In this document: positions 1 through 36,201 of the stretch, piece by piece
Layout of the letters: every line of letters begins with the position of its first letter
How positions within the stretch are numbered: the stretch's first letter is position 1
Source: Candidatus Calditenuaceae archaeon
Lineage (GTDB): Archaea > Thermoproteota > Nitrososphaeria_A > Caldarchaeales > Calditenuaceae
Assembly: GCA_025058225.1 (NCBI GenBank)
Contig: JANXEE010000025.1
Span: 11,302-75,301, forward strand
Reading direction: 5' to 3'
Length of the DNA stretch: 64,000 nucleotides
The notes under the pieces: generated by a model
What the model was told of the DNA's origin: nothing
What the model saw: the letters and a program-made list of their open reading frames with translations, nothing else
Database searches by the model: none
Position numbers and translations under genes: made by a program

Positions 1-2606
1 TGCTGCCCGCTGACAGGATCGGGCTGGACCGGGAACGTGAGGTTAACAGGCACGCCACCATCCTTCCACCAGATTCTCATCGTGTCGGGGTCGCTGCTCT
101 CGAAGGGCTCAATGCCTGAGATTACCCTCATTCTCACCAAGTCACCCTCCTCGCTCGTCTCGACGAAGGAAGAAGCGATTCTACTCGCCCCTATGTCCTT
201 CTGGACCCTGAACCTTCCGAAGTGCTCCGTACAGCCAATCACACCAGGCAACACTCCGCTTGTCACCCAGACCCTGCTGACGAAGTACCCTATCTCCGTA
301 GTTACCCTGATCAGGTCACCGGTCTTCACGCCGAGCTTCGCAGCGTCCTGTGGGTTCATCCAGATCGGGTTCTTATGGGATATCTCCGTTAACCACTTGG
401 CGTTGTTAGACCTAGTGTGAATCTGGGTTGGAACCCGCATAGTTGAGACCAATACGAACTCGCCCCGTTCCCTGTCAAGGTCGGCGTGATGGACATGGCT
501 CTTCACGTAAGAGGGAATAGCGTATTCCGGCCAACCCCACTCCTTCAGCGTTCTCGAGTAGAACTCAATTCTCCTGGACGGTGTAGGGAAGCCCAGCAGC
601 GGTTTCCCGTCAACCACCACACCTATCCGCCAACCCTTTTCGGTCCTCTCACTCGCCGGCATAGGGACCATGTTGATCCTCTTGGGAGGGTTAGGTGAGT
701 AAATCACACCCGTTGCCTCATCGAAGAAAGCGTCTCTCAGCTCCTCCTCGCCGAGGGGTGTCTCATGGCTCATGTATACGTTTCTCGCCATCTCATATGC
801 TCCGAATCTCCTCATGTATGAGAGAGGATCCATTCCAGCTTCCCTTGCCCTCTCCTTGAGTCCCGGGACCGAGTTCTCGAAGATCCACCTGTAGAACTCG
901 TCAGCCGTTATCTTCTCGCCGGGCCTGTAGGGCGACTCGAAGTTCTTCCTTATACCGAGTTTTCCGTCGGGGTCGATGCGCCAAGAGAGCTCTATCCAAA
1001 ACTCGGCCTCGTCCATCACCTCCGCCGGTGCTTTCAACTCCTTCCCCAGCTTCTCTCTGATCACTGAATTGATGGGCTGTCTGAACCCTATCCAGATCCC
1101 CGAGTAGGACTCATAGCTATGGAGGTCATGCCTCTCGAGGGCCGTCCCAACAGGCAGAATGAGGTCGGCATACCAGGCAGTCTCGTTCCAGAAGGGGGTG
1201 AGGGCAGCTATGAAGCCTATCTTCTCCTCGTCCGTCAATACCTTACTCCAGAGGAACCCGTCTGGATAAGTCACGATGGGGTTGAAGGCCCTTGGCATGT
1301 AGACCGAGAGCTTCCCTCTCCCCTCGAGGAGCATGTGGGGCAGAATGAAGCTCATTTCGTGGAAACTCAGCGGGAACTCTTTCGGAAAGAGCAGATCGCT
1401 CCAGACCCTCTGAGGCTCCGGGTGGTGAGGCACTCGGGGGACGAACTTGTGGAAGACGTTGAGGTCCATTCCTCCAACCGTCCCGATGCTTCCGGTCAAG
1501 GCGTGAAGGAAGACGAGGGCCCTCGAGACCTGCCAGCCGCCAAGGTTCCCCGCACACGCTGAACGCCATGTGTGGGATGAGAAGGCACCACCGGCCCTAG
1601 CTATCTCCAATGCCAGCTGCCTCACGGTCTCTGATGGAACACCGCACTCTTTCTCGACGAACTCTGGTGAGTACGCGGAGTAAATCGCCTTCAGTACTCT
1701 GATGAAGTTCTCAAAGGTCGGCTCCTTGTCCGGACACTCCTCCATCATGTACTCCTTCCAGTTGACCCATCTCCTCAGAAATTCCCTGTCGTAGAGGTCC
1801 TCCTGAAGTATCACGTTCGCTATTCCCAGTAGGAGCGCCGCCTCGGTTCCAGGCCAACACGGTATCCAATAGTCGGCCATGGCGGCAGTATTGGAGAGCC
1901 TGACGTCTATTACAGCGATTTTCGCACCCTTCTTCTTCGCGTCAATGATCCTTTGAGCGTGGGGATTGAAGTAATGTCCGCTCTCTAGGTGGTCGGAGAG
2001 CAACAGGATGAACCTGGCGTTCTCGAAGTCAGAGCAAGGCCTGTCCGCCCCCATTATCAGTGCATACCCAGCCCTAGCGGATGAGGAGCAGACGTTGGTG
2101 TGGCTGTTCCTTCCGTCGACTCCCCACGACTGGAGCACCCACTCCATGAAGCCGTCCTCACCGGGCCTTCCTACATGATACATTACCTCGGTCAACCTGC
2201 CTTCCACAATGCATTTCCTTATCCTCTCTGCGAGCATATTGATGGCCTCGTCCCAGCTCACCCTGACCCATCTTCCCTCCCCTCTCCTGCTCCCCTCCTC
2301 ACGCTTGAGCGGATACGGAATCCTCTCCGGATCATAGAACTGATTGAGGCTCGCGGGGCCCTTGGCGCAGTTCCGTCCTCTGCTGGTAGGGTGGAATGGA
2401 TTCCCCTCTAACTTCGTAATCTCGAGCGACTCCCTGTCGACGTACGCAAGGAGCCCACACCCGGCCTCACAGTTGAAGCATACCGTGGGGACTATTAGAT
2501 ATCTTCTCTTAACTCGTCGCGGCCAGACCTTCGGGTCGTACTCCTCCCAGTCGTCCCACTTCTCTTGAGGGGGATGGCTCAGGAATCTCTGCACGACACC
2601 TGACAT
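1..2606 (-). CDS. Molybdopterin (bis-PGD) oxidoreductase catalytic subunit, DMSO-reductase family (Psr/Phs/Ttr-like); C-terminus runs off the window
   Basis: Absent from the ORF track because there is no stop codon inside the window. My reverse-strand translation from the ATG at 2606 stays open for 868 codons. Motifs: MSGVVQRFLSHPP...VCFNCEAGCGLLAYV (N-terminal 4Fe-4S Cys cluster), NSHTNVCSSSARAG (candidate Mo-ligand Cys), NPIWMNPQDAAKLGVKTGDLIRV (C-terminal barrel domain). No twin-arginine leader. Confidence 0.85.
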   Translation of the reverse strand, partial: MSGVVQRFLSHPPQEKWDDWEEYDPKVWPRRVKRRYLIVPTVCFNCEAGCGLLAYVDRESLEITKLEGNPFHPTSRGRNCAKGPASLNQFYDPERIPYPLKREEGSRRGEGRWVRVSWDEAINMLAERIRKCIVEGRLTEVMYHVGRPGEDGFMEWVLQSWGVDGRNSHTNVCSSSARAGYALIMGADRPCSDFENARFILLLSDHLESGHYFNPHAQRIIDAKKKGAKIAVIDVRLSNTAAMADYWIPCWPGTEAALLLGIANVILQEDLYDREFLRRWVNWKEYMMEECPDKEPTFENFIRVLKAIYSAYSPEFVEKECGVPSETVRQLALEIARAGGAFSSHTWRSACAGNLGGWQVSRALVFLHALTGSIGTVGGMDLNVFHKFVPRVPHHPEPQRVWSDLLFPKEFPLSFHEMSFILPHMLLEGRGKLSVYMPRAFNPIVTYPDGFLWSKVLTDEEKIGFIAALTPFWNETAWYADLILPVGTALERHDLHSYESYSGIWIGFRQPINSVIREKLGKELKAPAEVMDEAEFWIELSWRIDPDGKLGIRKNFESPYRPGEKITADEFYRWIFENSVPGLKERAREAGMDPLSYMRRFGAYEMARNVYMSHETPLGEEELRDAFFDEATGVIYSPNPPKRINMVPMPASERTEKGWRIGVVVDGKPLLGFPTPSRRIEFYSRTLKEWGWPEYAIPSYVKSHVHHADLDRERGEFVLVSTMRVPTQIHTRSNNAKWLTEISHKNPIWMNPQDAAKLGVKTGDLIRVTTEIGYFVSRVWVTSGVLPGVIGCTEHFGRFRVQKDIGASRIASSFVETSEEGDLVRMRVISGIEPFESSDPDTMRIWWKDGGVPVNLTFPVQPDPVSGQ

Positions 2607-34813: not shown

Positions 34814-35419
34814 TTACAGGCCGAGTTTTGCCGCCAAACTCCTCGCCGACTCCAACAGCTCCGGTGAGTCGACGTCCATCATCTCCAGTGGGTCTACCTC
34901 GACGGCGACTGCCGACCCGATGTAACGCTCAACGACCCTTCTCGCTCCCTGGTCGCCTTCGAGGGCCAACAGGTCTCCGAAGAACCTAGAGTCGAAGGCC
35001 GCTGGGCTGCGAACCTCTCCCCCGACGGTGCAGTAGGCGATGCCCTTTCCGCAGGCCCTGACCAGCCTGTTCAGAGTTTCGGCCCTGAGGAAGGGCATGT
35101 CCCCAGGACAGATAACCACACCGTCAGCTCTGGCCATCACGGCCTCAACCCCCTTCCTTATGCTCGATGACATCCCAGATGCCCAATTGGGGTTGAGAAC
35201 CACCTCCACGCCCTCCGGGAGGACGCCCCGGACACGTTCAGCCATCCAACCGAGCACGACCACCACGGGCCTGCACTCAGATCCCATAGCTGCGTCAACG
35301 ACCCTCCTCAACACCTCCCTTCCACCTACCTTCGCGACAAGCTTGAACTCTCCCTGCATCCTTCTCGAGGCACCCGCGCCCAGCACAACAGCAGCAAACC
35401 TCATTCCATTTTCACCCAA
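34814..35419 (-). CDS. MobA/MocA-like molybdenum-cofactor nucleotidyltransferase
   Basis: 201 aa. AAVVLGAGASRRMQGEFKL is the MobA-like NTP-transferase N-terminus. VICPGDMPFL is also present. Confidence 0.75.
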   Translation of the reverse strand: MGENGMRFAAVVLGAGASRRMQGEFKLVAKVGGREVLRRVVDAAMGSECRPVVVVLGWMAERVRGVLPEGVEVVLNPNWASGMSSSIRKGVEAVMARADGVVICPGDMPFLRAETLNRLVRACGKGIAYCTVGGEVRSPAAFDSRFFGDLLALEGDQGARRVVERYIGSAVAVEVDPLEMMDVDSPELLESARSLAAKLGL

Positions 35420-35430
35420 CTCAACGTAAC

Positions 35431-35439
35431 ATATTTATA
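35431..35439 (+). promoter_or_regulatory. TATA-like box ATATTTATA upstream of the Lys-rich micro-ORF
   Basis: Centred about 39 nt upstream of ATG 35474. GTGATGG (SD-like) sits 5 nt before the ATG. Confidence 0.35.
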
Positions 35440-35473
35440 CCGTCTTATTACAATAATTGTCGAGTGATGGAAG

Positions 35474-35605
35474 ATGCCTGCTAAGAAGGTGAAGAAGAAG
35501 GCTGCGAAGAAGAAGGCTGCGAAGAAGGCCCCGGCTAAGAAGAAGCCAGTGGCCAAACCACCGGAGAAGCCTCCGGTACAGGGTGCACCGCCAGCGGGGA
35601 CGTGA
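35474..35605 (+). CDS. Small (43 aa) Lys/Ala/Pro-rich basic protein, histone-H1-tail-like composition
   Basis: Too short for the ORF track. Translation: MPAKKVKKKAAKKKAAKKAPAKKKPVAKPPEKPPVQGAPPAGT. It uses AAG Lys codons, like the neighbouring genes. It has an upstream TATA and SD-like sequence and a downstream hairpin plus T6. Confidence 0.4.
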   Translation: MPAKKVKKKAAKKKAAKKAPAKKKPVAKPPEKPPVQGAPPAGT

Positions 35606-35642
35606 GCCCGCTGCGGGCTTAACACCAATGGACGCATTTTTT
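35605..35642 (+). terminator. Hairpin AGCCCG-CTG-CGGGCT followed by a T6 run
   Basis: 6-bp stem with a 3-nt loop at 35605-35619, overlapping the micro-ORF stop. T6 at 35637-35642. Confidence 0.35.
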
Positions 35643-35643
35643 A

Positions 35644-35892
35644 TTACGTCGACTCGCTCCGTTTAGCTCTCGCCCTGATAGCCTCTATCAGCTCCTCTCT
35701 GGTCTTGCCATCGGTGGGTATGCCAAGACGCTCGGCGATCTTAAAGACCTCGTCCTCCGACTCCCCCCGGGACACCTCGGCCCGCAGCCTGCCTAGGGTT
35801 TTACCCCACCTCACGAGGACCTCGGGTTTCAGGAGGACCCAGATGAACAGGATTACCGCGACGAGGATGAGGGCCTCCGTAACCGATATCAA
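35644..35892 (-). CDS. TatA-like small membrane protein (divergent paralog) with HeH-like C-terminal tail
   Basis: 82 aa. N-terminal TM (ALILVAVILFIWVLL), then an amphipathic KPEVLVRWGKTLGRLRAEV. C-terminal FKIAERLGIPTDGKTREELIEAI. Confidence 0.55.
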   Translation of the reverse strand: MISVTEALILVAVILFIWVLLKPEVLVRWGKTLGRLRAEVSRGESEDEVFKIAERLGIPTDGKTREELIEAIRARAKRSEST

Positions 35893-35898
35893 AGCGGT

Positions 35899-36201
35899 TC
35901 ACTTCTTCGCCTTGAGCCTGGCGGCTATTTCGTCCGCTATCTGATCTCTGGTCTTTCCCTCTGTCTCGATGCCGAGTGACTTGGCAATCGTGATTATATC
36001 CGATGAGGGCTGCGAGGTCGCTGGTGCCGGGGTCTCCGAGATTACCGACCTGAACTCCTCCTGGACGTCCCTAGAGGCCTTCTCGTACTCCCTCCTCGCC
36101 TGACCTATCGCCCTCGCTATCTTCGGGATCTTGTCAGGGCCCCAGAGGAGAAGTATCGCGACCACAACCAGCACGATTACCCACTCCATTCCCTGGATCA
36201 A
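35899..36201 (-). CDS. tatA: Sec-independent translocase component TatA/E with HeH-like C-terminal tail
   Basis: 100 aa. WVIVLVVVAILLLWGPDKIPKIARAIGQARREYEKA is the TatA TM-hinge-amphipathic helix pattern. C-terminal ITIAKSLGIETEGKTRDQIADEI. Confidence 0.75.
   Translation of the reverse strand: MIQGMEWVIVLVVVAILLLWGPDKIPKIARAIGQARREYEKASRDVQEEFRSVISETPAPATSQPSSDIITIAKSLGIETEGKTRDQIADEIAARLKAKK

Follow-up and report, generated by a model that had tools for sequence, protein, structure and literature searches.

A micro-gene of 43 codons lies at positions 35420-35643, on the plus strand, of a 64,000-nucleotide stretch of DNA from a Candidatus Calditenuaceae archaeon (contig JANXEE010000025.1 of a 1.17-Mb, 73%-complete assembly); the whole stretch is called the window below. 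By the evidence of sequence comparison, it is a genuine protein-coding gene that has its own transcription signals and is under strong purifying selection. The product, exactly MPAKKVKKKAAKKKAAKKAPAKKKPVAKPPEKPPVQGAPPAGT, is probably a disordered polycation that binds nucleic acid. In total, 49 orthologs were collected from 13 of the 15 genera of the class, and all of them share one plan, in which a Lys/Arg/Ala head that begins with Met followed by Pro or Ala is joined to a Pro/Ala/Glu tail.

Coding status and expression signals

All six other genomes of the window's genus carry an open reading frame (ORF) at the same site, between a MobA-like gene and a pair of TatA-like genes, which is where an earlier, sequence-only reading of the window had advised looking for it. 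These congeneric ORFs begin with MPAKK, end in a KPP(A)EKxP-type tail and are 42, 43, 44, 53, 55 and 61 residues long, all insertions and deletions being multiples of three nucleotides. G000 and its closest relative, G005, differ by 17 synonymous and 3 non-synonymous changes (pS 0.55 and pN 0.03 per synonymous and non-synonymous site, respectively), giving a non-synonymous to synonymous ratio, omega, of ~0.03, compared with 0.17 for the MobA-like and 0.15 for the TatA-like flanking gene of the same genome pair; against the three closest orthologs, omega is 0.03-0.10. When the four closest genomes are aligned, 86, 77 and 44% of the columns are invariant at codon positions 1, 2 and 3, respectively. 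In the same alignment, the invariant fraction is 78% in the 69-nt promoter region, 20% in the 30 nt that follow the stop codon and 88% in the region of the T-run. The position of the stop codon is kept among close relatives, while its type swaps between TGA and TAA. The features of the locus and its two neighbours are as follows.

35431-35439, plus strand: TATA box ATATTTATA, with the core TTTATA at -40 from the ATG and a purine-rich stretch resembling the transcription factor B recognition element (BRE) 5' of the box
35444-35459, strand unassigned: second conserved AT-rich element CTTATTACAATAATTG, nearly invariant in the four-genome alignment
35464-35470, plus strand: Shine-Dalgarno (SD)-like GTGATGG, 4-10 nt 5' of the ATG
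35474-35605, plus strand: coding sequence of the micro-protein, 43 codons and stop, with the ATG at 35474 and the TGA at 35603-35605
35474-35557, plus strand: polycationic head, residues 1-28, with 14 of the 15 Lys, no acidic residue and a net charge of +14
35491-35527, plus strand: perfect 15-bp tandem repeat of 2.5 copies, scored 74 by Tandem Repeats Finder at a period of 15 and 100% match
35558-35602, plus strand: neutral Pro/Ala-rich tail PPEKPPVQGAPPAGT, residues 29-43
35605-35619, plus strand: hairpin AGCCCG-CTG-CGGGCT with a 6-bp stem and a 3-nt loop, sharing the last base of the stop codon
35637-35642, plus strand: T6 run, likely an archaeal oligo-T transcription terminator
34814-35404, minus strand: divergent neighbour, a MobA-like nucleoside triphosphate transferase (Pfam PF12804, E = 2.5e-36)
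35644-35892, minus strand: convergent neighbour, a TatA-like membrane protein of 82 residues with no Pfam hit of its own

The sequence-only reading had placed the ORF, TATA box, SD-like motif, repeat, hairpin and T6 run at these same positions and had given the same peptide sequence. Its count of 17 Lys is to be corrected to 15: the composition is K15 A10 P9 V3 G2 M1 E1 Q1 T1, i.e., 35% Lys, 23% Ala and 21% Pro. The absence of aromatic residues, also claimed there, holds for the window's protein and for all 49 orthologs, which likewise lack His. The tandem repeat encodes KKKAA KKKAA, and it is within this region that relatives have gained or lost multiples of 3 bp. GC content drops across the locus from ~0.61 to 0.49-0.51. 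In the whole 1.17-Mb assembly no other small ORF (at least 22 residues) has at least 25% Lys, and the micro-gene is single-copy in the window's genome.

Three accounts in which the plus strand is non-coding have to be weighed, namely an ORF that arose by chance in a spacer rich in AAG, one that only mirrors an antisense ORF and the leader peptide of a lysine-codon attenuator; taken together they are very improbable. An antisense ORF of 78 residues (35401-35637, minus strand) is open throughout the genus and inherits the low omega through the common wobble positions. As the antisense frame uses the same wobble positions, omega alone cannot separate the strands, which tempers the argument for the plus strand given above. 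The strand was therefore called from the start codon, the promoter, the terminator and the stop codons in distant orthologs. The open state of the antisense frame follows from the codons themselves, as AAG, GCN and CCN cannot give antisense stops. Its ATG is missing in G002 and G004, a stop falls inside the ortholog of genus g2, and it crosses the conserved TATA box and SD-like motif, and so it was rejected. By contrast, the conserved ATG and stop position, together with a conservation that collapses right after the stop and returns at the T-run, fit an ORF on the plus strand. A run of lysine codons with a hairpin and a T-run after it has the superficial look of an attenuator. Such a leader is defined by a same-strand downstream gene and a conserved terminator/antiterminator; the next gene is convergent in every lineage, so that there is nothing to attenuate, the hairpin is not conserved, and the Rfam search returned no family match anywhere in the window. 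The attenuator was likewise rejected.

The promoter takes the form TTCTTATA (or the same preceded by A) or ATATTTATA, with an A-rich BRE-like stretch 5' of it, and is conserved in the orthologs of family f1, the window's own lineage being genus g1, that were examined; in these the distance from the end of the box to the ATG is fixed at 34-35 nt. Across the genome, TATA-like hexamers are most frequent at -34 to -29 relative to the start codon, consistent with leaderless mRNAs. The hexamer of the micro-gene lies at -40, and the transcript is therefore predicted to have a leader of ~6-10 nt that carries the SD-like motif. GTGATGG is identical in five of the seven genomes of the genus and degenerate in the other two (GTGGTGA and GTGAAAC), and GAGGT or AGGT occupies the equivalent site in other genera. 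GUGAU is complementary to AUCAC of the usual 16S rRNA 3' end, a general feature and not one read from this assembly's own 16S. An upstream start is excluded because GTGATGG holds an in-frame TGA.

Downstream, an ATTTTTT run is found 30-40 nt 3' of the stop in 10 of 10 family f1 orthologs examined, and oligo-T is an established archaeal termination signal. The hairpin has a minimum free energy of -15.6 kcal/mol in the 48-nt 3' region (z = -1.9) in the window's genome; in nine other orthologs it is absent or different, with z from -0.7 to +1.4. It is particular to the window's genome and was rejected as a part of the terminator. A scan for sigma-70 promoters and hairpins, which is ill suited to archaea, marked nothing of use on the plus strand. 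Promoter, start, frame, stop and oligo-T are shared by the whole genus and, in their main lines, by the class. The description of the 224 bp as a complete expression unit is supported for these five elements, and the hairpin is no part of what is conserved.

We also note that the 69-nt divergent intergenic region as a whole (35405-35473) is more invariant in the four genomes than either flanking coding region, and that it contains two AT-rich boxes, the first of which (TATAAATAT on the minus strand) is nearly palindromic. The region could drive both the micro-gene and the MobA-like gene as a bidirectional promoter, and the element at 35444-35459 may be the promoter on the MobA-like side. On the other side of the micro-gene, the TatA-like genes form a tandem pair (82 and 100 residues, window 35644-36201, minus strand), kept across the genus, of which the 100-residue paralog alone matches Pfam TatA_B_E. 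The two proteins have a common C-terminal motif, LGI-x-T-(E/D)-G-K-(T/S)-R-(E/D)-(E/Q)-(I/L).

The family across the class

In the taxonomy used, the class containing the Caldarchaeales (Aigarchaeota), a group of hot-spring archaea, coincides with its order and comprises the same 76 genomes and 15 genera. Orthologs were located by DNA similarity, by an AAGAAG-spaced pattern and by synteny with the gene of a tRNA-binding protein homologue (Trbp), since genome searches with a profile (hidden Markov model) are insensitive to this low-complexity family and missed even the window's own copy. Some of the DNA-level hits in relatives were false and were set aside as the N-terminus, MPSKKVKKKR..., of a membrane protein of ~200 residues. 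This membrane protein begins with MPSKKVKKKRNLS or MPKKKSRAGPPPKKR (L017, L019 and L022, at ~933-1541 on the minus strand or 1434-2063 on the plus strand).

The orthologs are 34-82 residues long. The head spans 20-66 residues with 46% Lys, 25% Ala and 10% Arg and carries a net charge between +9 and +38. The tail is 13-17 residues long in 42 of the 49 orthologs (median 15), consists of 32% Ala, 27% Pro and 12% Glu, and usually contains an (A/P)-P-x-E motif. The sequence-only reading had named a repeat that is length-variable and frame-disrupting among close relatives as a finding that would speak against the gene; length does vary, and the frame is intact in 49 of 49 orthologs.

Several departures from the typical form were observed. 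In genera g12, g13 and g15 (L082, L083, L086, L087 and L091) the head reaches 55-66 residues through (R/K)KKTT-type repeats, with a net charge of up to +38, and the tail of the same loci is still 14-16 residues. Two genomes of genus g4 have a Trbp-adjacent copy of 23 residues that is Ser/Lys-rich and tail-less and ends in Cys (MAAKKSKKSKAKKKSKSKSSKRAC; L078 1857-2015, plus strand, and L080 1944-2024, plus strand), and a third g4 genome, G011, has the normal form, 48 residues, adjoining GlmS. Genus g6 of family f3 possesses two Lys-rich micro-genes. One, of 34-36 residues, lies beside the Trbp gene (L079, L081 and L084, at ~1235-1352, minus strand). The other, a paralog of 63-67 residues with a long acidic Thr/Glu/Pro tail (L014 1386-1586, minus strand; L065, L067 and L068), sits between the genes of the tRNA m1A58 methyltransferase TrmI and an AAA_17 P-loop protein. 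A second Lys-rich small ORF with a putative start and the sequence ...GKKAAKKMGSKPAKKKVKAKRKAKPKPAPPAPSEKRAESAAEAPAM is also present in G021 of genus g7 (L016 1486-1638, plus strand); its context is unlike that of the Trbp-adjacent copy of this genome, L070, and it may be a paralog.

Searches of protein databases place the family outside known ones. Against Pfam, seven orthologs gave no significant match, the best being DUF6465 (E 1.8) and, for one of the seven, HC2 (E 0.47); Linker_histone (PF00538) was not matched by any of them even at E <= 10. NCBIfam also gave no significant match (best E 0.07-0.17), nor did the PDB (best E-value 1.2). A profile search of 1.84 billion representative proteins returned no match at E <= 0.001, and single-sequence and profile searches of 5.8 billion clusters returned nothing except one mis-started ortholog, from G043. 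This record (P0001; L037 1366-1656, plus strand) is an 88-residue call with a spurious 34-residue N-terminal extension (MLKGLSNMLSGRF...) before the conserved MPAKK start, and no other member of the family was found in public protein records. An exact look-up of 16 ortholog sequences and 4 antisense ORFs showed all of them to be absent from ~15 billion predicted proteins; the locus is therefore normally left 'intergenic'. The claim that the gene is too small for standard gene callers is borne out by these 16 absences in part only, in that 43 residues is above common minima and one ortholog is public. The evidence supports the description as a Lys/Ala/Pro micro-protein that resembles a histone H1 tail and has no known counterpart in archaea, and no known family matches it. 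AlphaFold2 predicts coil only, with no secondary structure (predicted template modelling score 0.13). Outside the class, none was found by a profile search of the phylum, which is insensitive, or in a control on Trbp loci, and this is not proof of absence. That control covered 27 Trbp loci in 26 Thermoproteota genomes of other classes and, with the same filter, found no such ORF beside any of the 27.

Gene neighbourhood and the presumed nucleic-acid partner

The micro-gene of families f3 and f4, and of part of f1, belongs to a conserved block made up of a convergent membrane-protein gene, the micro-gene and a head-to-head tRNA_bind gene. The latter encodes a stand-alone PF01588 protein of the Trbp111 type, a bare OB fold of 107 residues, and in most cases is followed by the gene of a class IIb aminoacyl-tRNA synthetase (aaRS) of the aspartyl-tRNA synthetase (AspRS) type; tRNA_bind and class IIb aaRS neighbours together occur in three of the four families. 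The head-to-head arrangement with the Trbp homologue is present in genera g4, g6, g7 and g9-g15, and in g2 the micro-gene is head-to-head with the aaRS gene itself. Adjacency to the MobA-like gene is kept in genera g1 and g3 only. The ancestral position is divergent from a Trbp111-type gene that is followed by AspRS, the window's genus, g1, and g3 having moved the gene beside the MobA-like gene. That the micro-gene works together with TatA or the MobA-like gene was considered and rejected, because only part of one family retains this neighbourhood.

In the proposed mechanism, the N-terminal Lys/Ala block, with a net charge of +14 here, would bind the phosphate backbone of nucleic acid non-specifically, in a mode likened to that of the histone H1 tail, Chlamydia Hc2 and the Lys-rich appendages of eukaryotic tRNA synthetases. 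The length of the head drifts through in-frame gain and loss of repeats, which suggests that charge and composition are selected and not a fold. The C-terminal block of ~15 Pro/Ala/Glu residues, neutral to slightly acidic and of constant length, would stay off the nucleic acid, where it would be a spacer that aids solubility or a short motif for docking.

As for the polyanion in the cell, RNA or tRNA of the translation apparatus is the tentative first candidate, DNA or chromatin comes close behind it, and a protein that binds both is doubtful. RNA is put slightly ahead because the ancestral gene stood head-to-head with a Trbp111-type tRNA-binding gene and AspRS. The TrmI-adjacent paralog also favours RNA or tRNA, and the composition and the histone background allow DNA. 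Overall, the gene context of the relatives points to RNA or tRNA at least as strongly as to chromatin.

Several observations weigh against the interpretation as a nucleic-acid-binding protein of this family and against its link to tRNA. No ortholog was seen in family f2 (genera g5 and g8). Nucleic-acid binding is predicted from composition, which would suit RNA and DNA alike. In the window's genome, Trbp and AspRS are on other contigs, at ~10998-11315 of C30 and ~16664-17647 of C6, respectively, and have no Lys-rich ORF beside them. The membrane-protein flank of the ancestral block is as conserved as the Trbp flank, and the Trbp adjacency may on that account be historical rather than functional.

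A more specific form of the RNA-directed interpretation takes the peptide to be a trans-acting Lys-rich cofactor of Trbp111, AspRS or both, and is possible though unlikely. In this scheme, the free peptide would attract tRNA electrostatically and without specificity, selectivity would come from the OB-fold protein or the synthetase, and the ~15-residue tail would be the docking motif. This would amount in effect, and with the same reserve, to a 'split' counterpart of yeast Arc1p or of the Lys-rich N-terminal extension of eukaryotic AspRS and lysyl-tRNA synthetase (LysRS). The distribution of head-to-head neighbours described above, the g6 paralog beside TrmI and the empty result of the outgroup control all favour it. 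In yeast Arc1p, tRNA binding requires both the Lys-rich middle domain and the Trbp-like OB fold (PMC11286949), and the Lys-rich segment of yeast AspRS is given as a known polyanion-binding element in the passage of PMC6213541 that cites Agou 1995; both count for the cofactor. The middle domain of Arc1p and the synthetase extensions resemble the micro-protein in being short, disordered and Lys-rich, and most relatives encode the micro-gene beside the Trbp111-type OB-fold gene and AspRS, two partners that in eukaryotes carry such segments as fusions. However, the micro-gene differs from Arc1p/AIMP1-type proteins in that it is separate, has its own promoter and terminator and is divergent rather than fused. 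The pairing forms no operon, the block with its equally conserved membrane-protein gene is perhaps simply old, and g1 and g3 have lost the linkage, having separated the micro-gene from Trbp and AspRS and yet kept it. The fully specified case, in which a Caldarchaeales 'split Arc1p' consisting of a free oligolysine peptide, a stand-alone Trbp111 OB fold and AspRS would capture tRNA with docking via the Pro/Ala tail, is a conjecture by analogy and rather unlikely.

The alternative that places the peptide on DNA regards it as a linker-histone analogue, which would offset the charge of the linker DNA that joins archaeal histone particles and thereby compact or heat-stabilise chromatin in the manner of the tail-only H1 of kinetoplastids. 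By analogy this too deserves consideration, at low likelihood. The Lys/Ala/Pro composition with PAKK motifs is in its favour, and the strong, conserved, stand-alone promoter suits an abundant protein. An archaeal histone is encoded in 21 of 21 tested genomes of the class, that of the window's genome being 77 residues long and tail-less. A review (PMC6136690) states that Archaea have yielded no linker histone homologous to H1, and since no H1 homologue is known there, the niche would be open. Nevertheless, no genomic link to a chromatin gene exists in any lineage, and the co-occurrence with histones is uninformative because many archaea without the micro-gene have histones all the same.

The comparison with H1 itself gives a divided result. 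The micro-protein and the H1 C-terminal domain or the kinetoplastid tail-only H1 are alike in Lys/Ala/Pro low complexity, high positive charge, disorder and repeat-driven length variation, and presumably in electrostatic binding to the nucleic-acid backbone. The basic disordered tail of H1 thus has its likeness here, whereas the globular winged-helix domain has none in a protein of 43 residues with no predicted structure. The micro-proteins moreover lack S/TPKK motifs and any detectable homology to H1 at their 34-82 residues, and their conserved neutral tail of ~15 Pro/Ala/Glu residues has no H1 counterpart.

Bacterial polycations bear on a further alternative, in which the ligand is not a nucleic acid and the peptide would bind polyphosphate granules as AlgP does, acidic proteins as a charge chaperone, or membranes; this is improbable. 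Fourteen Lys within the first 28 residues will bind any polyanion, and Pseudomonas AlgP, which is H1-like, associates with polyphosphate granules (PMC9239181), a point in favour of such a ligand. Bulky hydrophobic residues are nearly nil, which argues against membrane activity, and the protein lacks a signal peptide. None of the contexts examined linked it to polyphosphate genes, polyphosphate kinase not having been searched for genome-wide. Chlamydia Hc2/HctB (PF07382), AlgP, the PAKKA-repeat tails of mycobacterial HupB and the Rv3852 family share with the micro-protein Lys/Ala(/Pro) repeats that expand and contract in frame and, by analogy, a proposed role as polyanion-binding polycation. 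They differ from it in that the micro-protein is archaeal, several-fold shorter and diblock. With best E values of 0.47 and 0.17, far below the cut-offs, the HC2 and Rv3852 models indicate a compositional resemblance only.

Improbable as well is a lineage-specific small ribosomal or ribosome-associated protein, similar to eL41 or bS22 and buried among rRNA helices. Like these two, the micro-protein is very small and extremely basic and is encoded by a stand-alone gene of the kind often missed by annotation; its strong expression signals would fit, and its weak best PDB matches, all with E > 1, are N-terminal tails of ribosomal proteins. Ribosomal proteins, however, hold fixed sites and constant length. 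eL41 and bS22 have a fixed length and a conserved sequence, in contrast to a basic block that varies threefold across the family and changes length even within one genus, through repeat gain and loss, and to a tail that is non-basic. There is also no linkage to ribosomal operons and no match to a ribosomal family model.

Significance of the family

Lys-rich low-complexity polycations are an already known kind of protein, represented by the H1 tail, Hc2, AlgP, the HupB tails and the aaRS appendages. The present one differs from these in being an archaeal stand-alone micro-protein with a conserved diblock plan, class-wide conservation and an ancestral link to Trbp and AspRS, and it has no detectable homology to any of them. 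Its gene, strongly constrained and probably highly expressed, is carried by a whole archaeal class and has been missed by public annotation. The family is useful as a test case for the finding of small genes in low-complexity sequence, and the peptide is accessible by synthesis.

With an oligolysine block joined to a short Pro/Ala block, the micro-protein is among the simplest of protein designs, in which selection would act on charge and tail length and not on a fold. If DNA binding is true, it would be the first archaeal counterpart of the linker-histone tail, in organisms with histone chromatin. If the partnership with Trbp111 and AspRS is true, it would bear on the origin of the Lys-rich tRNA-binding appendages of eukaryotic synthetase complexes. 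In the case of a split Arc1p, the micro-protein would represent either a prokaryotic precursor of those appendages or their convergent counterpart, in an archaeal group related to the lineage that founded the eukaryotes.

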